DNA of 53,655 bases from a virus (lineage: Duplodnaviria; Caudoviricetes), in IMG/VR virus record IMGVR_UViG_3300037467_002078, positions 1 through 53,655 of that record; one strand, given 5' to 3'. Below, one piece after another: positions 2,007 through 23,207 of this stretch. A model generated the notes under the pieces. The model did not search any database. It was not told the origin of the DNA and was given only the letters and a program-made list of their open reading frames with translations. Numbering within the stretch: the stretch's first letter is position 1; every line of letters begins with the position of its first letter. Made by a program: the position numbers and the translations under genes.

Positions 2007-2381
2007 TCAAGGGTAAAGAGAGGCAATCTGCAAGCCTTTAATAAGGCCTCGGGCAAACGATCTAGCGCGCTCTTCGTTGAACTCTTTCGTTTGCCCGGGT
2101 AGTAGCGCCGCCTTTAACAGCAACGCTGATTCTTCATCCCTTGTGAAGAACAGGGGATATCGCTTCTCACGCCTGACCATCCACTCCATTGTGATAGTTA
2201 CGATATCAAAATTAACACGCCTGGATGGATGAAGAAGATACCCGCATTCCACGTCTAGGAATTCAGATGGCCTGTAGACAGGAACGACGTACGTTCCCGC
2301 ATGAATGAACGCCTTGTCTATCCCAGGCAGTTCCAGCACAGTAATGGGCTCGAAGTCGTGGGTGTAAAGGATAATTCTCAT
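2007..2381 (-). CDS. Hypothetical protein
   Basis: Last gene of the minus-strand operon; abuts the GT stop tail-to-tail. Confidence 0.65.
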   Translation of the reverse strand: MRIILYTHDFEPITVLELPGIDKAFIHAGTYVVPVYRPSEFLDVECGYLLHPSRRVNFDIVTITMEWMVRREKRYPLFFTRDEESALLLKAALLPGQTKEFNEERARSFARGLIKGLQIASLYP

Positions 2382-2383
2382 AG

Positions 2384-2641
2384 CTAGCGAAGCCCCGCCT
2401 GTCTTGCACGTAGGCACGCTGCCATCAGTTCCCCTCGCCGCATCCCAATTGCCAAGTCGTTGGCAATAGTCGACGAAGCGTTCCAGTAGTTGATCGAACC
2501 GCCTGGAGCACTGGCCGTCGCCTTTTGCGCCTCATACTCACAGAATGCGCGATCCTCCTCGCTGAAGGAGGAAGGCGCGCTGTCCAAAGTCGTGCAGCCA
2601 GCTACCAGCGCGGCTGCCATGATTATCGCTGCAGTTTTCAT
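2384..2641 (-). CDS. Small lipoprotein
   Basis: MKTAAIIMAAALVAGC lipobox; GGAGG RBS. Confidence 0.75.
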   Translation of the reverse strand: MKTAAIIMAAALVAGCTTLDSAPSSFSEEDRAFCEYEAQKATASAPGGSINYWNASSTIANDLAIGMRRGELMAACLRARQAGLR

Positions 2642-2642
2642 T

Positions 2643-2864
2643 TTAACCTCCGTTGAAGTTACCATAGTTAGCCAAGTACATCCTCTGAGAAATTCCATCA
2701 AACATCGCGCCAGTAATGTTGTTCTCTCTAAACTCCGCGGCCAATTTGACCTTGCTGGTGTACTTGCCTAGCAGTGCCCCGCTAGGTAAGTAGGCTTCAA
2801 ATTTGTTCACGCTAAAAGTTACTTTGACACCAGTTCTTTGTTCATCAGTCAAATTCAATTTCAT
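2643..2864 (-). CDS. Hypothetical early protein
   Basis: Directly after a sigma70 promoter and the CTTGCTGAGGAG RBS. Confidence 0.75.
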   Translation of the reverse strand: MKLNLTDEQRTGVKVTFSVNKFEAYLPSGALLGKYTSKVKLAAEFRENNITGAMFDGISQRMYLANYGNFNGG

Positions 2865-2910
2865 TCCAATTCTCCTCAGCAAGGTTCCGATCAAATGTGA
2901 CCGTAAGAGA

Positions 2911-2951
2911 ATATTAGCACACTCACCACAGCTTGTAAACAGTTATTTACT
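2911..2951 (-). promoter_or_regulatory. Sigma70-type early promoter with palindromic -35 operator
   Basis: TTTACA-N17-TAATAT on minus strand (2939-2911); TGTAAA-cagtta-TTTAC palindrome. Confidence 0.8.
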
Positions 2952-2954
2952 GAT

Positions 2955-3371
2955 TCACCTCTTCAATGGCCGCTCAACAGTGATTTCTTTTGCATTCCCA
3001 AACCACTCTCGAAATCCCTTCTTCTTCAATATTTCGACTGTTTCGGCGTCATCGAACGGTTCAGGGTGCCAGCCGTAGAAATGCAGGTCGTACTGGTCGT
3101 CCAGCCAGTCACGGCCATAGAACGTGACTCTCTCGTGCCTAAGCCGCACACTCTCCGGCTTTACATACTCAACATCCCAATGTCCAGCGTCTTTAAAGTC
3201 AAATGGTTCAATTTCAACGATGGCGGCCGGAACCTGTGGATCGGTACGAGTTTTCCTCACATCACTCATACAAACAAACCGAGCTTTCACCCATTTGTCG
3301 CCACTAAAATAGTTCATTAAACAATCCAGCTCCTCACCTTTCGGCAAAACTAACAAATCCTCTATTCTCAT
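2955..3371 (-). CDS. Hypothetical protein
   Basis: ORF with GGAGG RBS within operon. Confidence 0.75.
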   Translation of the reverse strand: MRIEDLLVLPKGEELDCLMNYFSGDKWVKARFVCMSDVRKTRTDPQVPAAIVEIEPFDFKDAGHWDVEYVKPESVRLRHERVTFYGRDWLDDQYDLHFYGWHPEPFDDAETVEILKKKGFREWFGNAKEITVERPLKR

Positions 3372-3871: not shown

Positions 3872-4363
3872 CTATGGCCAAGTTTCCCATTTCCGACCAG
3901 CTGCAACCCAGAGTTTCTCCGACTCAGAATGAGGGTACGGTTCCACAAATACGATCCTCTCGCAGCTAGTGTTTAAAAGAAGTTTTACGCACGTCACACA
4001 TGGGCTGGTTGTGATATACGCCGTATGTATCTGATACACGTCATGGCACTGCAAGAGCGCGTTCTGCTCAGCATGGATTGCCTGACATGAGTCAAGGCCA
4101 GTCCCACTGGGAAGGTCAGCACCCTTGCAGGCAAAAGGGTACTCAGGTCTAGTGACGAAGCAGTGTCCATTCTCGTGCTGCCCCACCTGAAAATGGGCTT
4201 CGTTGCAGTGCGGAAGACCTGAGGCGACCCCGTTGTACCCAGTGGCAAGCACGTGCCCTCTGGCGTTCAGTAGAACGCAGCCAACTTGGCGTCGAACGCA
4301 CGTAGCCCTAAGCGAGGTCTGCCTTGCCAGTGAGATAGCCCATTCATCTCGGCTAGGACGCAT
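3872..4363 (-). CDS. dCMP deaminase
   Basis: ATCVRRQVGC, TGYNG, HAEQNA and PCVTC zinc-deaminase motifs; GGAGG RBS before ATG 4363. Confidence 0.92.
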   Translation of the reverse strand: MRPSRDEWAISLARQTSLRATCVRRQVGCVLLNARGHVLATGYNGVASGLPHCNEAHFQVGQHENGHCFVTRPEYPFACKGADLPSGTGLDSCQAIHAEQNALLQCHDVYQIHTAYITTSPCVTCVKLLLNTSCERIVFVEPYPHSESEKLWVAAGRKWETWP

Positions 4364-5171
4364 CTGCTGCCTCCCACCAACGGAGTGAGGAGCCTGGACT
4401 TGTCTCGCGTAAATCCTTAAGCGCGCGCAAGAGAACCTTCGGTGATTGCCAGAGCGTGGCCGGAGCCTCCTGCTGGCCTTCATCGTCCCATACCGAGTTG
4501 ATGATAGCCTTTGCTGCCTCCCAGTTAGATTCGTAGATGTGGCTTGACGCGGCAGTCAAGTGCAGAGTACCCGGTTTAACAACGAAGTTTTGTGGACCGA
4601 AGGTGTTGAGATATCCGCAGACCAGATAGGCAACCATGCAGAAGTTAAAAACGTCATACGGCACACCCAGCCAGATATCTGAGGAGCGCATGAAGACATG
4701 CGCATTCAACTCTAGTTCATCGTAGTGTGATTGTCTGATGTTAAAGAACATGGCCACGGTGCAGGGCACATCTTTTGTTACAGGTGGGTTCTCCCGCCAA
4801 ATGGTAAGTCCTGCTTGCCTGGAATCCCTGTCCTCTAAAAGCTTGTCGACCACGTAATGAAGCTGGGCTAAAATCTTAGGCCCGTAAGCCCCGAAGAATT
4901 TTACTCCGTCATCAGAGAACTTGGCGATGTTCGGATTATAGGGCGCGATCGTCTTCACCTTGTTGTCGCCGGAGACGATCCAGTACGCCTCAGCTGCCAT
5001 GAACTTGTAATTCAGTTTCCTGGCTGGCACCTTCAACACGGGTTTTCGCATGTTAACAGCGATGGTGTGCTGTGGCAGTTCTCGAGTGAGCATCCCTCTA
5101 GGGGAAACCTCATATCCAAAGTACAAAGCTGAGTGAAGCAGGCTGAGCCATGTTTTTGTAAAATCTATCAT
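4353..5171 (-). CDS. Thymidylate-synthase homologue, probable dCMP (hydroxy)methyltransferase
   Basis: EAYW, DSRQA, DVPCT (catalytic Cys), MRSSD, HIY motifs; LGVPYD has Asp where dUMP-specific ThyA has Asn. Confidence 0.85.
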   Translation of the reverse strand: MIDFTKTWLSLLHSALYFGYEVSPRGMLTRELPQHTIAVNMRKPVLKVPARKLNYKFMAAEAYWIVSGDNKVKTIAPYNPNIAKFSDDGVKFFGAYGPKILAQLHYVVDKLLEDRDSRQAGLTIWRENPPVTKDVPCTVAMFFNIRQSHYDELELNAHVFMRSSDIWLGVPYDVFNFCMVAYLVCGYLNTFGPQNFVVKPGTLHLTAASSHIYESNWEAAKAIINSVWDDEGQQEAPATLWQSPKVLLRALKDLRETSPGSSLRWWEAADAS

Positions 5172-6103
5172 TTCTTCTCCTTGATCAGCATTTGGATGAG
5201 CGGATAATTGTCTTCAAGAGCACCTTGGAATCGCTTCCAAAATTGTGGGTGAGGGACTTGGCGCAAGTTAGTCAAGTTGAGACCAAGAAGTTCCTTGTGC
5301 GCTCTTCCTCCAAGGGCAAACACGGGGCGGCTGAAGTGGAAGTCTTTCAGAAACCACAAATCTTGATCTGAGTTGATCCAAAGAAGTTGATCTTCTCGAA
5401 TTCCAGCATTAATAAGCTGCTGCGTCAGCCACTGACTACATCCAGTATTTGAAAGCGAACCGAACGGCCACTGGTAAAACGCATCCTCGTCCTTCTGTTC
5501 GCCAAATCTGTCTCCCACCAGCACCAGCTTCGCCCTCCAATCGCCGGCTGAAGCGAGATGGAGTGGGTGCCGAGGCGCGCGGAATGCATCTAGCATGTCC
5601 TTATTAATCTTCCCACTGGACGTGTAATCAAACAGAATAGACGGGAGGTGGGTTTGATGTGGGCGCTTGTAAAAATCGTAGACAACACGGAGCTGGTCTT
5701 CATTGTCAAGCATCTCAAGATTCTTCCGAGAGAGGTAGTTGTTTCTGACAACCTCCCATGAAGGAAGGCATCTCACTACTACAGCCCCACACCTGAGGGC
5801 CAAGCGTTCCAGCACGCGAATCTGCCCCTCAGTTATGCGAAGCCGGTTGTTCCGGAAGGCGACGCCGTAGGGCTCCTCACTCAACCAGCAACGATCAAGC
5901 ACGACATCTTGGTACCCCAGAAGCGCAGGCAACATGGCTTCGACATACATCCGCCCCAGCCCCTTATCGACTCTTGGGAGCGCAGAGAAGTGGACGTAGC
6001 GCGCTCCAGTTTCCTTCGCGAACTCAGTGGCAGCGGTAGTTTTGCCGCCGCCATCCGGCCCTTCAAAGATTGTTATTTTTGCCGAGGTGACATTCGTCAT
6101 CAC
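5168..6103 (-). CDS. dNMP kinase fused to a uracil-DNA-glycosylase-like domain
   Basis: N-terminal IFEGPDGGGKTT P-loop and LDR motif; C-terminal LVLVGDRFG...WPF...WIN...FALGGRA...VPHPQ resembles UDG-superfamily motifs. Confidence 0.75.
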   Translation of the reverse strand: MMTNVTSAKITIFEGPDGGGKTTAATEFAKETGARYVHFSALPRVDKGLGRMYVEAMLPALLGYQDVVLDRCWLSEEPYGVAFRNNRLRITEGQIRVLERLALRCGAVVVRCLPSWEVVRNNYLSRKNLEMLDNEDQLRVVYDFYKRPHQTHLPSILFDYTSSGKINKDMLDAFRAPRHPLHLASAGDWRAKLVLVGDRFGEQKDEDAFYQWPFGSLSNTGCSQWLTQQLINAGIREDQLLWINSDQDLWFLKDFHFSRPVFALGGRAHKELLGLNLTNLRQVPHPQFWKRFQGALEDNYPLIQMLIKEKK

Positions 6104-6512
6104 GATGGTTTTCCTCTCTAGAATCGATTCGTGGATTATATCCGGCCGCTATCAAGATTTCGAGCGTCTTCGGCCCAACCCAACCAGCCGGTTTAGTGAC
6201 ATCTACGACATGCCCGCGCTTAGTACGACCTCGCTCCTTGGTCATGTTGGCACGCTGGACGTCCGCCCAGAGTGCATCCCACGGTAGCCCCAGCATGTCA
6301 GCTGTACCCATGGAAACGTAGACGATGTCGATCAAGGCATCTGCCTGGGCAGCCAAATCTTGGGCATTGCAGGCTTCTTGAAACTCAATGAACTCCTCGC
6401 CGATGAAATCGATTCGCTCTCCTAGCTTACGTCGGGTCAAGTGGACGGGTTTACGGTGCGATAGAAGACCGAACTTTTGGTGAAACAGAATTACATCTTC
6501 AAATTTTGCCAT
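6063..6512 (-). CDS. MazG-like all-alpha NTP pyrophosphohydrolase
   Basis: EEFIEF, DALIDIVYV and VQRANMTK motifs. Confidence 0.85.
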   Translation of the reverse strand: MAKFEDVILFHQKFGLLSHRKPVHLTRRKLGERIDFIGEEFIEFQEACNAQDLAAQADALIDIVYVSMGTADMLGLPWDALWADVQRANMTKERGRTKRGHVVDVTKPAGWVGPKTLEILIAAGYNPRIDSREENHRDDECHLGKNNNL

Positions 6513-6515
6513 GCG

Positions 6516-7298
6516 TTATCTCTTCAGTTTGCGGCATACCCACAGATTGTTGCGAGCATAGTCTGGGTACAATGGGGCAAAGATGCAGCTGATGGCATCG
6601 TTGTCGTAATATTCGGAAAGCGCAGTCCTCAGCACTTTGATCGCCTCGTCCTGTTTGACCAGCTCAGGAGTAGAAAGCCCCGCCTGGCCACTGTTTGCTT
6701 TGCCGATGTGCTTGATGTCCATGAATGTACCGAACCGACGCTCGATCTTGAACCCAACCTTCTCTGTCGCCTTCTGAAGTTCCGGGACGGTATATTCGTG
6801 GATGTGATTGGCTGCGTGCCGCACTCCATCGTAGCATGGAGTGGACATCAGCATAGTGCCTCCTGGTTTGAGAAGGTCGAAGCAGCCCTTCAAAAGCTTT
6901 GCCCCATGTTCGACTTTCATGTGTTCAATGACTTCATAGTGGACAACAACGTCGAAGCCTTCTGGCCGAAGCTTCTTCAGTTCCTTCTGGCGTTCGACGA
7001 AGTTGAATTCCCCTAGGAAGGTTAGCCTCTGGCTATTGGACGGCTTCAGCTTGTTCATGTCTACACCAACGTAGGTATTGACATGGGCTGAAGCCCCGCC
7101 AGTCAGAATCTTGCTGAGGGGACGGTCCTCACCACATCCGATTTCCAGCACGTTATCTTTTGTGGTGATGAACCGTCTCGCAAAACTCCAACGCCAGAAA
7201 TGCGCGCTATAGTCCCGATGGAGGGACTTCCCATGTCCAGCTTCACGAAGCTGGGTTGTATCAAAATCCCGTCCATCACGGATTTTTTCTCGACGCAT
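6516..7298 (-). CDS. Class I SAM-dependent methyltransferase (small-molecule type)
   Basis: VLEIGCG motif I, YVGVD, FDVVVHYEVIEHM, LLKPGG, STP...HIHEY; no DNA-MTase DPPY/NPPY or PCQ-type motif IV. Confidence 0.88.
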   Translation of the reverse strand: MRREKIRDGRDFDTTQLREAGHGKSLHRDYSAHFWRWSFARRFITTKDNVLEIGCGEDRPLSKILTGGASAHVNTYVGVDMNKLKPSNSQRLTFLGEFNFVERQKELKKLRPEGFDVVVHYEVIEHMKVEHGAKLLKGCFDLLKPGGTMLMSTPCYDGVRHAANHIHEYTVPELQKATEKVGFKIERRFGTFMDIKHIGKANSGQAGLSTPELVKQDEAIKVLRTALSEYYDNDAISCIFAPLYPDYARNNLWVCRKLKR

Positions 7299-7332: not shown

Positions 7333-7950
7333 TTACTTCCTGGCTTCCGGCGGGTTCATCCCTTTCTTCTTGAGATGGTTCCGGTACCACGTGACGTATC
7401 CCTTCTTCGAATCGTCCAGATCAAACTCGCTCTGAACTTTCTGGAAGATCTTTTCATCCGACAGCTTGCCCTCCATAATGAGTTCCTGGAAGCGAGCCGC
7501 CGCAGTCATGGCCTTTTGTGGTTTGGCCGCGGGTTTGGTCACGGATTTCGTGGTTGTCTTTGCCGCAGATTTGGCTCCAGGTTTTTCTTTTGCCGGAGCC
7601 TTCGCTTCGACCGACTTCTTAGTTTGAGGCATTTCAGTCTCCTGTGTGATTGCAGTTGGTGAAATACGGCCTAGGTAATCCCAGGCCTCCTTTGAAATCC
7701 CCGCCGTCTGAGCAATTCGCACGAAGTGTGCGATCGCCTTTTCGGCAGGGTAATTGACGATCGGCTTATACCGGCCGTCAAATTCGCTGATCTTGGCTTT
7801 TTTCACGTCAAGACCATCATTCACGTCAAGTGGAATGAACTTGACAAAATCTTCGCCCCGGACAATCTCAAGGCACGTGTACCGATTATGGTCATAACAC
7901 GGCACAGGAACTAAAACTTCCGGGGTCTTTGCAGTCGCTTTTTTCTTCAT
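7333..7950 (-). CDS. Hypothetical basic protein with conserved C-terminal helical domain
   Basis: K/A-rich linker and C-terminal ...KKGYVTWYR domain shared with the neighbouring gene. Confidence 0.8.
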   Translation of the reverse strand: MKKKATAKTPEVLVPVPCYDHNRYTCLEIVRGEDFVKFIPLDVNDGLDVKKAKISEFDGRYKPIVNYPAEKAIAHFVRIAQTAGISKEAWDYLGRISPTAITQETEMPQTKKSVEAKAPAKEKPGAKSAAKTTTKSVTKPAAKPQKAMTAAARFQELIMEGKLSDEKIFQKVQSEFDLDDSKKGYVTWYRNHLKKKGMNPPEARK

Positions 7951-7953
7951 GGC

Positions 7954-8460
7954 TTAGGCTTCTTTGCGCTTGGCTTCGGAACGGTACCAGGCGGGGTAGT
8001 GCTTCTTGTTGTCGCCCAGCTTGAACTCTTCCTTGATAACGGCCCAGATTTCAGCGTTGGTCTTCCCATCGACGATCATGGCGCGGCAAACTGCCGAGAC
8101 CGTACGCTTGCCAGTGAAGCGTTCCGCAGACTTCTTTTCGGAAACCTTTTTAATGATTTCCTTGGCTGCAGCAGCGATGTCTTTCTTGACTTCCTTCTTC
8201 ACAGCCTTGACCACGGCATCGGCTACCGCCATGTCAACTGGCGCATCCACTGTTTTTTCATCGATAGACTTTTCGGGCGTCGCATGGCCGTTGCCTAAAA
8301 ACTCTTTCGCTTCACCAACGAGAATTCTAAACTCAGTTACACCGCCCCAGTTTCCCTTTTCGATGAACTTATCATAGTCAATTTTGTTGACGCCCAAGCC
8401 CTTCAAAAAACGAGTGGCGGAGTCGCGGGTCTTCACAAATTTTTCGTCGGTGTTGCTCAT
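7954..8460 (-). CDS. Hypothetical basic protein with conserved C-terminal helical domain
   Basis: C-terminal ...KKHYPAWYR domain; follows promoter and CTTGCTGAGGAG RBS. Confidence 0.8.
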   Translation of the reverse strand: MSNTDEKFVKTRDSATRFLKGLGVNKIDYDKFIEKGNWGGVTEFRILVGEAKEFLGNGHATPEKSIDEKTVDAPVDMAVADAVVKAVKKEVKKDIAAAAKEIIKKVSEKKSAERFTGKRTVSAVCRAMIVDGKTNAEIWAVIKEEFKLGDNKKHYPAWYRSEAKRKEA

Positions 8461-15436: not shown

Positions 15437-16123
15437 TTACTCTGAAAGAAATTTGTGCTTGGTTTCTCCCATTGGGCGGTGGATCGATTCTCCGCTTGCC
15501 GCAGCACGACCAGCGTGGTACCCCACTGCGCCGATCTTACGTTTCTGTGAGTCGGCTGTCCTACCACTCGTTAAGCGTTGAAATTCGTCCTCGATAAAAA
15601 CCTTAGTCTCATCCGAGAGGGCAAACTCGTGAACAGTCTTCGAGATTTCTCGAACCCAACCCTTGCAGAATCCGTCGGCTTCGACGGTCTTCCGAGTTCT
15701 GCCGCAATGTCCACCAAATCGAGCGATGAACTGAGCCCTTGCCCTTGCCATTTTCCGTTGAAGAACCTCGCAGGTGTAGTGAGCAATCGGCACCTGAGCC
15801 TTCAGGCCGATAAGAGTAAATGTGCCGAAGACGTTCACCGCGTGACTGGATGACTTAACCCACATTACCTTGCAACCAAAGGCTTTGGCTACCAAAGTAA
15901 CTAGAGAGACCTCGTAGTCTTTCAACTTTGACACAGAGAACTTGGATTTGAAATCAACCATGACAATTTCTGAGCGGCCCAAGTCAGACTGGGTTATATC
16001 GTACTTCTCCATCAACTTCTGAGCCTGGCGCAGGGCGGCGGCAGCCTCGTGAGGCTCAGAGGACTGGCTCAGCGCCAAGCACTTCTTGATCTTGTCCAGA
16101 ATTTTATCATCTAACTTGTCCAC
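15437..16123 (-). CDS. DUF2786-domain protein
   Basis: KILDKIKKCLALS...EAAAALRQAQKLMEKY N-terminus; GTG 16123 after GCTGAGGG. Confidence 0.85.
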   Translation of the reverse strand: MDKLDDKILDKIKKCLALSQSSEPHEAAAALRQAQKLMEKYDITQSDLGRSEIVMVDFKSKFSVSKLKDYEVSLVTLVAKAFGCKVMWVKSSSHAVNVFGTFTLIGLKAQVPIAHYTCEVLQRKMARARAQFIARFGGHCGRTRKTVEADGFCKGWVREISKTVHEFALSDETKVFIEDEFQRLTSGRTADSQKRKIGAVGYHAGRAAASGESIHRPMGETKHKFLSE

Positions 16124-16157
16124 GTTATATCCCTCAGCGTTGTGAATAACAGAGTAC

Positions 16158-16198
16158 ATTATACTGCAGTTCAATACTGGTGTAAATATTTATTTACA
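16158..16198 (-). promoter_or_regulatory. Sigma70-type promoter with palindromic -35 operator
   Basis: TTTACA-N17-TATAAT on minus strand (16186-16158); TGTAAA-tattta-TTTACA. Confidence 0.88.
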
Positions 16199-16338: not shown

Positions 16339-17316
16339 TTAAAGCGCTAAGGCTCTTTCCAATGCCTCAGTCTTCAGTGAATCACCGCGACCGTACCACG
16401 CTGAGGCGATCCGGTGGCTGTCGGTCTTCGCCCGAGCATGGTGGTCAACGAACTCGGTAACCGAATTTACCAAACCCCAGGCTGAACCTTCGGCTGAGAC
16501 CAACGTGCCGCCCATGGCCGAACCCTTGAACAAGTCCATGATCTTCTGGAACTGCTTAGACTTGCGCACATCTTCGCCCAAAACCGTGCCGGTGTCCTTC
16601 AGAAGGGCGTCAGTGAAGTCCTCGGCTTTCTCGTTGCTCATGCTCTTGGCAGCAAGCACACGAGCAGCCTTGAGGAAGTCGCCGAAGTGGCCACGTGCAA
16701 GACCCAGTTGGCTCTTGACTTCGTTTGCGTTGAAATGGCTGGTATGGCGGACGACAACTTCACGTTCGGCCTTGCCGGTCAGGGCCATGCTCAGCGTGTT
16801 GTTGCAGACAACGCGGATCGTCGTGAACCGAGCCGTGGTAGCCAGCGTGCCGTCACAGGACGAGCTGAGCAGCAGGTATCCGCCGATCTTGTCCTCGCCC
16901 ACGACGCAAGCCTCTTCGCCGATGGCCGCAAGAGCCCAGAACCGCTTGCCGTCGAACAACGTCCCAGCCGTGTTCAGCGTGTAGCCGTTGGCGTCGGTCA
17001 GGTCGCGGAAGAACTCCAGCACTTCGCCCGGTTGAACGACCTTGTACTTCTTGGACACGATCCCCAGTGCAGCCTTGCTGTCGGAACGGAACAGCACGTG
17101 CGACTCGGGGATGTCATGGAGACCAAGGTCTTCGCCCCTGGACGTAGCGTAGCGCACAACACCGCGTTGAATCGTCCAGTCCATCCCAGCAGCCTGTTTC
17201 CAGACTTCCAAATCGGCGCCGGCCTGGAGCTCTTGTCCAAGACCATGCCATGGGGTTTCGCCTACGTAGGCCATCTCAGCAAACCCATTCTTACGTACGG
17301 TAACGGCAGCAACCAT
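16339..17316 (-). CDS. DUF932 family phage/plasmid-like protein
   Basis: MAYVGETPWHGLG, YKVVQP, TAGTL..GK, SSCDG, TTIRVVCNNTL motifs. Confidence 0.9.
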   Translation of the reverse strand: MVAAVTVRKNGFAEMAYVGETPWHGLGQELQAGADLEVWKQAAGMDWTIQRGVVRYATSRGEDLGLHDIPESHVLFRSDSKAALGIVSKKYKVVQPGEVLEFFRDLTDANGYTLNTAGTLFDGKRFWALAAIGEEACVVGEDKIGGYLLLSSSCDGTLATTARFTTIRVVCNNTLSMALTGKAEREVVVRHTSHFNANEVKSQLGLARGHFGDFLKAARVLAAKSMSNEKAEDFTDALLKDTGTVLGEDVRKSKQFQKIMDLFKGSAMGGTLVSAEGSAWGLVNSVTEFVDHHARAKTDSHRIASAWYGRGDSLKTEALERALAL

Positions 17317-19055: not shown

Positions 19056-19985
19056 CTACACCGCCACTGGCGCTTTAATCGCTGGATGCGGGTCGTAGCC
19101 TTCGAGGATAAAATCCTCGTATTTAAAATCGAAGATATCCTTGACGGCTGGGTTAAGGTGCATCCTGGGAAGGTTTCTCGGCCGCCTCGTGAGCTGTTCC
19201 AAGGCTTGATTGTAGTGGTTGCGATAAACGTGCGCGTCACCTAGAGTGTGGATAAATTCGCCAGGGACTGTATTTGTCACTTGTGCGACCATCATGGTAA
19301 GCAACGCGTATGACGCAATGTTGAACGGCACACCAAGAAAGATATCCGCGCTACGTTGATACAGCTGGCAGTCCAGCATCCTTGACGGAGCACCGACGGT
19401 GTCCATATAGTTGATGGCGTGACTAGTGGTGCTCCATACCCAATTGAGCTCGCGCTTCTTATCCGGGTCAAAAAATTTCCAACGCTCCGCGAACGTCATC
19501 GGCCGCGTGTTGAACTGAAACATCACATGGCATGGCGGCAAAGCCATCTCATCAATTAATCCAACATTCCATGAAGAAACAATCAAACGGCGGGAATCTG
19601 GGCTATCCTTGATCTGGTCGATTACCTGCGAAATTTGGTCAATGCCGCGCGTGTCAGCTGCCCTAGCGCCTCTGATATCAGGCCAGCTCCGCCACTGGGC
19701 TCCATAAATTGGCCCGAGGTCTCCATGCTTGTCTGCCCACTCGTCCCAAATGGTTACTCCGTTATCGTTCAGATACTTGATGTTCGTGCTGCCCTTAAGA
19801 AACCACAGCAGCTCATGAATGACGGACTTCAGGTGAATCTTCTTTGTCGTCAACAGTGGGAAGCCATCTTGCAAATTAAACCGCAGCTGGCGGCCGAACA
19901 CTGAGAAGGTGCCAGTGCCAGTGCGATCTTCCTTAATCGTTCCAGAACTCAAGACCTCACTGAGTAAACCAAGATATTGTTTCAT
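19056..19985 (-). CDS. thyA: Thymidylate synthase (canonical, dUMP-specific)
   Basis: [51 protein letters not shown]. Confidence 0.97.
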
Positions 19986-22074: not shown

Positions 22075-22457
22075 TTCGTCTCCTTCATTGCTGCGTCGAT
22101 GGCTTCACGGATTGGCAACCCGCCCATGATGATTCCCCTAACAGATAGGTTGCCAACAGGAGCTACGTTCACTTTCCAGCCCATACTGAAATCCTTGTTA
22201 CTATCTAAGAAGTCCAACCGCTCCGCATCCTTCCGCAGCTTCTCCACTTCAGCCTTGAGCGCTTTATTCTCGTTTATCAGATATATGACACTATTTCTTG
22301 AATTGTCGCGCTCGTTGGTAAGCATGAAGTTTTCAGACTTCAACTCATCAATCTCAGGCTGGCGAGCGTACCAACCCTCACAGGCCGCCCTATTGGTGTC
22401 GCTAAAAGGAACTTGATTTATCTGTGTAGTTGCGACCCACTCTTCGAATGTTTTCAT
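22071..22457 (-). CDS. Hypothetical coiled-coil protein
   Basis: LRKDAERLDFL...REAIDAAM pattern. Confidence 0.7.
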   Translation of the reverse strand: MKTFEEWVATTQINQVPFSDTNRAACEGWYARQPEIDELKSENFMLTNERDNSRNSVIYLINENKALKAEVEKLRKDAERLDFLDSNKDFSMGWKVNVAPVGNLSVRGIIMGGLPIREAIDAAMKETK

Positions 22458-23038
22458 TTGGTAACATCCTTCCAGTCATGTGACTTGACTACCTTATTCT
22501 TCCATAGAACAGGCTCCAGGTCATATGGTAAATATAGCGGATGGGCGGGTGTTCCGTTCCTGTTCATCTTGAGGTAGTGAACTTTGCTTGGGTACCGGTT
22601 CTGGAGTAGCCGTTGCACTCCAATTCCTCGATTGAAAAGGTCTCCGTGCGCGCCCCAACCGCAGATAATCATAGATGCCTTAGACGTTGCCTTAGCAATC
22701 CACTCATTGTTATCGACGCCAACCGGATCGGGGTGGCGATAGAGAACGGCTGGGGTTGATGTCCTCAGTGCAAACAGGTTGACGATCTCTATCCCACCAA
22801 ACCCTAGCTGCTTTGCACGTTCCACGCACCGCATAACCGTCGGGTCAGGTATTTCGTGGGTGGCGGTTGACGGGTTCAGCAAGACGTAGCACACAATCGG
22901 CTTGAGTGCGTTCCACACCCGCCAGAGCGAGTAGCGGTGCTGGTTAGATGATGAAAAGACTGCGCCACTCTCTACGGTACCCATGATGCATGAGAGGTCG
23001 ATGAGTTTATCTTTACTGGGCGTCGTCCAATCAGGCAT
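22454..23038 (-). CDS. DUF1643-domain protein
   Basis: HRYSLWRVW, LLNPSTA, DPT..RC, VNLFALR.T.P, CGWG, PAHPLY; GGAGG RBS before ATG 23038. Confidence 0.85.
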   Translation of the reverse strand: MPDWTTPSKDKLIDLSCIMGTVESGAVFSSSNQHRYSLWRVWNALKPIVCYVLLNPSTATHEIPDPTVMRCVERAKQLGFGGIEIVNLFALRTSTPAVLYRHPDPVGVDNNEWIAKATSKASMIICGWGAHGDLFNRGIGVQRLLQNRYPSKVHYLKMNRNGTPAHPLYLPYDLEPVLWKNKVVKSHDWKDVTK

Positions 23039-23207
23039 CACGGCCTCCTTTAAGGAGACGCTTCTCTTCGATCTCAGCCACGATCTTCTTGGCAATTTCA
23101 AAATCATTCTCGATCCTGCGTTCAAGTTCCCAGCAGGAATCACACAAATCAGCCATGCGCCCAGGAGTCTCCTCCTCGTTGCACAGCCTGCATAGTTTCA
23201 CATCCAT
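23031..23207 (-). CDS. Small zinc-finger protein (58 aa; not in the ORF track)
   Basis: MDVKLCRLC...LCDSCWELE...; GGAGGAG RBS. Confidence 0.65.
   Translation of the reverse strand: MDVKLCRLCNEEETPGRMADLCDSCWELERRIENDFEIAKKIVAEIEEKRLLKGGRDA

Follow-up and report, generated by a model that had tools for sequence, protein, structure and literature searches.

Introduction

Phages that replace the cytosine of their DNA rely on a nucleotide pathway of few steps, from which enzymes for epigenetic sequencing and DNA engineering are drawn. In cytosine-modifying phages, YorR-like or thymidylate-kinase-like kinases adjoin homologues of the thymidylate synthase ThyA (PMC13326640), and deaminases beside Asp-type ThyA homologues can put 5-hydroxymethyldeoxyuridine (5hmdU) into DNA (bioRxiv 10.1101/2024.12.05.627091). 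Folds of the uracil-DNA glycosylase (UDG) type occur on phage polymerases, where the domains fused to PolA in phiLo, YerA41, SP-15 and SPO1-like phages are active and those of N4-like phages inactive (PMC13697223). In addition, M6 gp54 is a validated 5-hydroxymethyluracil DNA kinase (5-HMUDK), a kinase of bases within DNA (PMC8989533). Here we analyse IMG/VR record IMGVR_UViG_3300037467_002078, which is complete at 53,655 bp and has direct terminal repeats (the window, meaning the whole stretch of DNA), which encodes a deoxynucleoside monophosphate (dNMP) kinase fused to a compact UDG-superfamily domain. UDG folds on phage polymerases and nucleotide kinases beside ThyA homologues are both known. 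The literature searched gave no description of a fusion between a dNMP kinase and a domain of the UDG type.

Results

A two-domain protein

The fusion is encoded by a single open reading frame (ORF):

5168..6103, minus strand: kinase/UDG-like fusion ORF, 311 aa from GTG at 6103 or 310 aa from ATG at 6100

The 310-aa form starting at the ATG is 100% identical to a database protein (P0001). A ribosome-binding-like stretch, GAGAGGAA, is found upstream of the ORF, the stop of which shares 4 nt (ATGA) with the start of the next gene. The product is a two-domain protein, consisting of a dNMP kinase (aa 1-172) and a compact UDG-superfamily domain (aa 175-311). A phmmer search of the whole protein against the PDB returned weak P-loop and kinase matches only. 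The AlphaFold2 (AF2) model of the full-length protein reached a predicted local distance difference test score (pLDDT) of 96.2 and a predicted template modelling score (pTM) of 0.93, and from these values we predict that both domains are joined into a single rigid unit.

The N-terminal half is of the thymidylate-kinase/YorR type, as detected by PHROG, profile and Foldseek comparisons and by Pfam in relatives. Conservation is given here and below as counts in an alignment of 74 relatives of 30-62% identity.

5588..6103, minus strand: dNMP-kinase domain, thymidylate-kinase/YorR type, aa 1-172
6035..6064, minus strand: P-loop EGPDGGGKTT, aa 14-23 (E14 73/74, G15 74/74, D17 73/74, G20 74/74, K21 73/74)
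5876..5896, minus strand: DRCWLSE, aa 70-76 (D70 73/74, R71 73/74, S75 73/74)

Residues 2-163 match PHROG 761 'thymidylate kinase' (phrog_761; E 9e-12), and the SPbeta prophage kinase YorR (2axp/3kb2) is the top match of the family profile (E 9e-12), ahead of kinases of the dNK family and thymidylate kinases. Foldseek with the full-length model likewise placed YorR first (3kb2, E 7e-7), then thymidylate and deoxynucleoside kinases (E 7e-7 to 1e-4). These matches bear out the initial annotation, which had placed a P-loop nucleotide kinase in the first ~175 aa. The Pfam family Thymidylate_kin (PF02223) is matched at E<=1 by 58 of 69 relatives (best 1.9e-6), the window's own protein giving no PF02223 match at that threshold. 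Both the P-loop (E-G-x-D-G-x-G-K-[ST]-T) and DRCWLSE, which we take to be the 'DR' motif of thymidylate-kinase-type enzymes, are present. Identity as a 5-HMUDK was also considered and rejected: hhalign of the family profile with M6 gp54 aligned 26 P-loop columns only (probability 77%). A tblastn search with the fusion protein in 50,697 phage records retrieved no M6, ViI, SP10 or PhiW-14 record, and the aGPT-Pplase Pfam family has no match in the fusion protein. Because the YorR and thymidylate-kinase matches come with retained motifs, and M6 gp54 could be aligned over the P-loop only, we read the N-terminal half as a nucleotide kinase rather than a DNA base kinase.

The C-terminal half adopts a minimal UDG-superfamily fold

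The remainder of the protein was examined as an isolated domain by AF2, Foldseek, VIA-align and atlas neighbours:

5171..5581, minus strand: compact UDG-superfamily domain, aa 175-311 (P0121)

The AF2 model of this domain (137 aa, from a 69-row alignment; pLDDT 91.4, pTM 0.87) displays the alpha/beta/alpha fold of the UDG superfamily with its central parallel four-stranded sheet, as recognized by both Foldseek and VIA-align. Foldseek returned 35 PDB matches at E<=0.001, and among the matches listed all are family-4 UDGs or UdgX (E 1.3e-5 to 9e-4), the best being the Thermus thermophilus UDG 1ui0 (E 1.3e-5, TMq 0.67). In VIA-align, which is independent of Foldseek and was run on 48,161 representative chains, the 16 best matches (Z 10.6 to 6.3) are UDG-superfamily entries or named UDGs, one being an unannotated conserved protein. 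They include TM0511 (1l9g, Z 10.6), TthUDGB (2d3y, 10.2), UdgX (10.2), the phiLo PolA-UDG (9qhs, 9.6), SMUG2 (5h0k, 9.5) and SMUG1 (5h93, 7.7), and also MUG, vaccinia D4, TDG and UNGs. The best matches in a viral structure library include phage UDGs and PolA-fused UDG domains, and the language-model neighbours in the atlas are viral clusters, 25 of 30 of them in the set whose family is PF03167. Congruent with this, 11 of 69 relatives match PF03167 at E<=1, weakly (best 1.5e-4). The initial annotation had named a fold unlike UDG as the result that would overturn it; with that comparison made, the fold is UDG-like by Foldseek, VIA-align and the language-model neighbours. As modelled, the C-terminal half is a minimal UDG-superfamily domain of ~135 aa, nearest to family 4/UdgX and devoid of an Fe-S cluster; it is the smallest UDG-type domain among the matches in this analysis.

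Two further proteins were encountered in this part of the work. In BFVD, gp315 of Bacillus phage G (G3MA56, 331 aa) matched the domain model (E 7e-5, TMq 0.69), and may be another multi-domain protein with a compact UDG-like fold. The window itself encodes, at 22454-23143 on the minus strand, a 229-aa protein of Pfam family DUF1643 (E 1.1e-38), a family that we assume to belong to the UDG clan. A relationship to the C-terminal domain found no support, with an hhalign alignment of 9 columns (probability 0.7%), and the protein gave no PDB sequence match of its own.

Active-site elements

In family-4 enzymes the active site is built from motif A, GE(A/G)PG, a TNAV element and motif B, HPS(S/A)(L/V)(L/V)R; the Asn of TNAV (N91 in UdgX) hydrogen-bonds uracil together with the His of motif B, and the Arg of motif B (R184 in UdgX) contacts the DNA backbone (PMC10359453). 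Counterparts are present in the fusion:

5501..5518, minus strand: motif A equivalent VGDRFG, aa 196-201 (family pattern V-G-[E/D]-x-[F/P/Y]-[A/G/T/S])
5462..5467, minus strand: P213-F214, the 'PF' after motif A (P 73/74, F 72/74)
5369..5380, minus strand: W-I-N-S, aa 242-245, TNAV equivalent (W242 74/74, N244 71/74, with D in 2 and T in 1)
5231..5251, minus strand: HPQFWKR, aa 285-291, motif B equivalent (H285 73/74, P286 74/74, Q287 63/74, K290 57/74, R291 67/74)

The motifs listed in the initial annotation were all recovered, and in the order claimed: KLVLVGDRFGEQ (aa 193-204), QWPFGS (211-216), LLWINSD (240-246), FALGGRAHK (262-270) and VPHPQF (283-288). In motif A, where the window has GDRFG in place of GE(A/G)PG, equivalence rests on order and spacing; G197 is found in 70/74 and an acid at position 198 in 69/74 (E 42, D 27, other 5), while the Pro is mostly replaced, position 200 being F in 54, P in 8 and Y in 5, followed by A, G, T or S at position 201 in 67/74. 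For the P213-F214 pair we presume a base-stacking role, as in family-4 UDGs. The uracil-binding Asn of family 4 has its counterpart in N244, with A or S at position 245 in 65/74. Similarly, motif B carries its Arg at +6 from the His, as does R184 in UdgX, and its H, P and R are invariant in a 30-sequence alignment of the C-terminal domain; the Ser of family 4 is replaced by Gln in 63/74. A four-cysteine 4Fe-4S cluster is a feature of family 4. It has no counterpart here, as C222 is the single Cys of the window's domain and the sole conserved Cys column. A further difference from family 4 lies in H179, G187, E237, W242, W225 and Y300, invariant residues specific to this family for which we assign no role.

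In the active PolA-UDG domains of phages, catalysis is attributed to E53, N177 and H178, and loss of these residues underlies the inactivity call for the N4-like domains (PMC13697223). By this published criterion the C-terminal domain looks active, since the residues whose loss marks the N4-like domains as inactive are kept.

The fusion is the common state among related viruses

In the protein collection, 656 homologues were found at E<=1e-3, the 120 listed being 295-317 aa long with 92-100% coverage. A search with the C-terminal domain only gave 488 cluster representatives, nearly all of which hold the domain at ~175-310 of proteins of ~300-330 aa; 12 short matches were examined, and most proved to be fragments of fusions still holding the end of the kinase domain, which were not counted as stand-alone. 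We further retrieved 50 viral loci with kinase-domain peptides, a sample that is blind to the C-terminus. The UDG-like domain is present in 42 of these. In four others (L044-L046, L053) the same cassette position is occupied by a kinase-only gene of 167-220 aa with no room for the domain, in three (L047-L049) the kinase is followed by a C-terminal extension of ~210 aa (385-392 aa in total), and the last (L039) has a decayed UDG-like copy with the motif residues lost. The L047 extension was tried as a UDG-like domain and cannot be called one (hhalign probability 8%). Single motif residues are lost in a few divergent members.

The jumbo phage RsoM2USA encodes a stand-alone homologue of 152 aa with all motifs, RsoM2USA_394 (hhalign probability 99.7%, E 6.5e-27). 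Because both this protein and the four kinase-only genes exist, each half is able to work alone, the fusion being the common state in the clade. The kinase-only genes, moreover, stand in the same cassette; thus, the kinase has no need of the UDG-like domain, which must serve a separate function. Among the 50,697 phage records, megablast with the cassette found no match and tblastn with the fusion protein matched only 5 records. The top match of the C-terminal domain search, P0122, is a database protein of 2081 aa in which 29 separate stretches match, the best to domain residues 55-91; it may represent either a protein of tandem repeats or an artefact of assembly.

The cassette and its predicted product

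The fusion gene belongs to a cassette with the order methyltransferase, MazG, kinase-UDG, ThyA homologue and dCMP deaminase, an arrangement shared by the window, Stenotrophomonas phage AXL3 (gp31-gp27) and Pseudoxanthomonas phage PW916. Of the 50 loci, 49 have a ThyA homologue next to the kinase gene, 47 have MazG, 44 have the deaminase and 42 have the methyltransferase. The window's genes, including a second ThyA homologue outside the cassette, are:

3872..4483, minus strand: dCMP deaminase (Pfam dCMP_cyt_deam_1 E 6.8e-18, phrog_174 E 2.8e-38)
4353..5171, minus strand: ThyA homologue, predicted 5-hydroxymethyl-dCMP maker (Pfam Thymidylat_synt E 1.4e-17)
6063..6512, minus strand: MazG/PRA-PH-type nucleoside triphosphate pyrophosphohydrolase (Pfam PRA-PH E 3.3e-16, phrog_671 E 1.9e-22)
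6516..7298, minus strand: class I S-adenosylmethionine (SAM)-dependent methyltransferase, counterpart of AXL3 gp31 (Pfam Methyltransf_23 E 6.7e-13)
19056..19985, minus strand: canonical ThyA (phrog_160 E 2.7e-115)

The deaminase probably starts internally, since its ORF overlaps the ThyA homologue. The cassette ThyA homologue carries Asp at the position of Escherichia coli N177 (GVPYD, compared with GVPFN in the window's canonical ThyA) and a second Asp in place of L143, three positions ahead of the catalytic Cys (KDVPC, compared with ALPPC), and retains D169. This signature is present in the window and in all 49 loci having a ThyA homologue. Published residue rules assign it to a dCMP substrate and a hydroxymethyl product, rather than a methyl or 5-hydroxy one (PMC13326640; bioRxiv 10.1101/2024.12.05.627091), and because the two Asp residues and D169 agree with these rules, the enzyme is predicted to make 5-hydroxymethyl-dCMP (5hm-dCMP). 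AXL3 virion DNA resists 35 of 37 restriction enzymes and is cut by only two of those tested, which have A/T-only sites; its authors left the modified base unnamed and called gp29 a thymidylate kinase only (PMC7504290). This pattern fits a full replacement of cytosine. The ThyA signatures and the AXL3 resistance together support the modified-cytosine genome that the initial annotation had supposed.

The methyltransferase weakly matches the PDB sequences of N- and O-methyltransferases that act on small molecules, and may further modify the 5-hydroxymethylcytosine (5hmC) nucleotide or DNA. Its presence in the 50 loci shows no strict link to that of the UDG-like domain, as four loci have the domain and no nearby methyltransferase (L030, L032, L034, L040) and L047-L049 have the methyltransferase and no recognisable domain. 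Complex prediction of the C-terminal domain with a dimer of the adjacent ThyA homologue scored 0.00 and gives no answer either way on binding.

In the PW916 record (OL960029.1), the feature table returned shows no coding sequence over the fusion homologue (2319-3266 of locus L002), which thus appears to be unannotated. The neighbouring ThyA homologue is labelled there as a dUMP hydroxymethyltransferase, whereas the homologues of the window and 49 related loci carry the dCMP (Asp) signature. Elsewhere in the window, adjacent lysine/alanine-rich ORFs at 7333-7950 and 7954-8460 (both minus strand; 205 and 168 aa), without Pfam match, end in similar C-terminal stretches (…EF.L.D.KK.Y..WYR…), a likeness that suggests a tandem paralogue pair, possibly DNA-binding. 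The replication module includes a DUF932 protein (E 7.6e-58; 16339-17316, minus strand) and a DUF2786/DUF7168 protein (15437-16174, minus strand).

Discussion

A proposed modified-dCMP kinase and uracil-type glycosylase

Judging from motifs and models, we see an even chance that the fusion joins a modified-dCMP kinase to an active DNA glycosylase for a uracil-type base, either uracil or 5-hydroxymethyluracil (5hmU). In the proposed scheme, MazG would clear dCTP by conversion to dCMP, the cassette ThyA homologue would turn dCMP into 5hm-dCMP, and the kinase domain would phosphorylate the latter to the diphosphate, toward DNA, as T4 gp1 does, with the deaminase supplying dUMP to the canonical ThyA in a T4-like manner. 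The C-terminal domain would act as a monofunctional glycosylase that flips a uracil-type base out of the phage DNA. That base may be uracil, originating from the dUMP-rich pool made by the cassette deaminase, or 5hmU, arising by deamination either of 5hmC, which in DNA yields 5hmU:G, or of 5hm-dC nucleotides. In the predicted site, Asn244 and His285 would hold the base, Phe214 would stack on it and R291 would hold the backbone, with the motif A acid (D198 in the window, E in most relatives) serving hydrolysis; the aromatic of motif A is followed by a small residue, which may make space for a 5-substituent. The fusion would keep the policing activity in fixed stoichiometry with the synthesis of the modified nucleotide.

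We favour the glycosylase because the pathway raises uracil-type nucleotides, because deaminases beside Asp-type ThyA homologues have been shown to bring 5hmdU into DNA (bioRxiv 10.1101/2024.12.05.627091), and because the genome encodes PolA and an ATP-dependent ligase and holds no other UDG recognisable by Pfam, a six-frame scan of the 53.7-kb genome at E<=10 giving no match to PF03167. The initial annotation had offered three functions for the domain, namely repair of deamination products, attack on unmodified host DNA, or a repurposed role in nucleotide modification. Of these, the conserved residues suggest that repair of deaminated bases fits best, because the residues of uracil-type enzymes (Asn, His, Phe and the acidic motif A) are kept together with the DNA-backbone Arg; the third, repurposing as a modifying enzyme, is conceivable.

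Several observations weigh against a glycosylase. The equivalence of the motifs comes from their order and spacing and from published patterns rather than from residue-level superposition; the window's own protein lacks a Pfam UDG match, and a profile of the C-terminal domain alone found nothing among PDB sequences at E<=10. The domain is ~55 residues shorter than family-4 UDGs and lacks the segment after the Asn, in which those enzymes have Fe-S ligands and some of the surface that binds DNA. It is also mildly acidic in most members (median isoelectric point (pI) 6.1-6.4, with 66% of 74 below pI 7). The motifs are eroded in some lineages (L032, L034, L035, L038, L039), and catalysis is therefore dispensable in places; L047-L049, in turn, carry an unrelated or unrecognisable extension where the UDG-like domain would be. 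No apurinic/apyrimidinic endonuclease was identified among the genes scanned, which comprise only part of the ORFs. Finally, the pTM of 0.93 means that the domain packs tightly on the kinase, which a repair enzyme would not need.

Alternative roles

Several of the same properties are as expected if the UDG-like domain instead is a binding module of the kinase, an explanation we hold to be unlikely yet deserving of serious weight. It would then tether the kinase to DNA or the replisome, or bind or hydrolyse dUMP and 5hm-dUMP so that the kinase skips them. The confident packing of the two domains into one unit, the truncation relative to family 4, the mild acidity and the retention of the domain in lineages with eroded motifs all agree with such a role. 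There is precedent as well, as the N4-like PolA cluster provides a documented case of a non-catalytic UDG fold at the replisome and such a use is discussed for vaccinia D4 (PMC13697223), UdgX has been crystallised with dUMP (6ajp), and deaminases encoded in cis yield 5hmdU-type nucleotides (bioRxiv 10.1101/2024.12.05.627091). A pure tether would, however, not need the acid, Asn, His and backbone Arg, all of which are under strong purifying selection (69-73/74). Moreover, the stand-alone form exists without any kinase, and in 4/50 loci the kinase of the same cassette functions with no such domain attached. The specific version in which the domain is a gatekeeper of the nucleotide pool, capturing or deglycosylating the dUMP and 5hm-dUMP made by the deaminase and thereby leaving the modified cytosine nucleotide as the sole one to be phosphorylated, we consider doubtful, with a rather small chance of being correct. 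Should it apply, this would be the first UDG-fold protein with free nucleotides as its targets, and would build a specificity filter into the synthesis of a non-canonical DNA base.

The engineered UNG variant that excises cytosine needs an Asn to Asp change. In the fusion family the base-reading Asn is kept in 71/74, Asp being present in only 2/74, and the motif pattern is that of the uracil-specific family-4 enzymes (PMC10359453), which renders it improbable that the domain is an offensive glycosylase directed at DNA lacking the phage modification, whether cytosine DNA of the host, as the initial annotation had entertained, or that of a competing phage. In favour of an attack, full modification of C is predicted for the phage genome, which would so be immune, and conflicts between phage and host involve glycosylases that distinguish modified bases from unmodified ones (PMC11078745; bioRxiv 10.1101/2025.10.29.685425).

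A cytosine-branch analogue of 5-HMUDK with a glycosylase-fold transferase, in which the kinase acts on 5hmC in DNA, the UDG fold flips the base and the methyltransferase completes a substitution, has a very slim chance in our view: thymidine hypermodification does pair a base kinase with such a transferase, natural fusions included (PMC5889632, PMC8989533), the final base of AXL3 was not identified by its authors (PMC7504290) and the cassette holds a methyltransferase without an assigned substrate, but the N-domain has thymidylate-kinase-type motifs and dNMP and deoxynucleoside kinases as structural neighbours, aligns with M6 gp54 at the P-loop only, occurs in kinase-only versions in the same cassette, and is the only nucleotide kinase of a cassette whose pathway needs one.

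Implications

The fusion represents an unannotated and widespread addition to the cytosine-replacement pathway, and may connect the synthesis of modified DNA with surveillance for uracil-type bases. If the domain excises 5hmU or uracil, as in the glycosylase reading, phages with 5hmC would guard against the products that arise when their own modified base is deaminated, and the domain would provide a minimal Fe-S-free glycosylase scaffold. If it instead acts on nucleotides or as a tether, the known range of the UDG fold would be extended. AXL3-like phages are cultured systems for which identification of the base modification is awaited.

Comparison with known systems

The family-4 UDGs and UdgX (1ui0, Thermotoga maritima TM0511 1l9g, Mycobacterium smegmatis UdgX 6ail) share the fold of the C-terminal domain (Foldseek E 1e-5 to 1e-4, TMq 0.58-0.67, VIA Z 10.2-10.6) and the order of its elements, with the motif A acid after Gly, PF, an Asn-Ala element and motif B H-P-x-x-x-x-R. 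They are, however, 190-210 aa long compared with ~135 aa, have a four-Cys Fe-S site compared with one conserved Cys, and have Pro in motif A, where 54/74 fusion relatives have Phe, motif B of the fusion being HPQxWKR. The solved UDGs display no HMMER-level similarity to the domain, and the fusion adds the kinase. SMUG1 and SMUG2, of UDG family 3 and relatives, match in fold, but the motifs of the fusion follow the family-4 and not the SMUG pattern. SMUG1 excises 5hmU, the deamination product expected in a 5hmC genome.

For the kinase half, T4 gp1 and the YorR-like kinases of RB69, DLP3 and RL38J1 share the predicted role of phosphorylating the product of a ThyA homologue. T4 gp1 belongs to a different kinase family. 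None of the kinases named in the available part of PMC13326640 is described with a UDG-like extension, unlike the fusion. A pairing of a kinase with a glycosylase-fold protein in a phage base-modification locus, sometimes as a fusion, is also seen for 5-HMUDK with aGPT-Pplase or AADT (PMC5889632, PMC8989533); these differ in belonging to another kinase family, in having a helix-hairpin-helix (HhH) rather than a UDG fold, and in acting on 5hmU in DNA. In the phage PolA-UDG fusions, finally, a family-4-type UDG fold is likewise attached to a replication or nucleotide enzyme in phages with modified pyrimidines (PMC13697223). There the partner is a polymerase and the modified base T, whereas here the partner is a dNMP kinase, the modified base is predicted to be C, and the domain is smaller.

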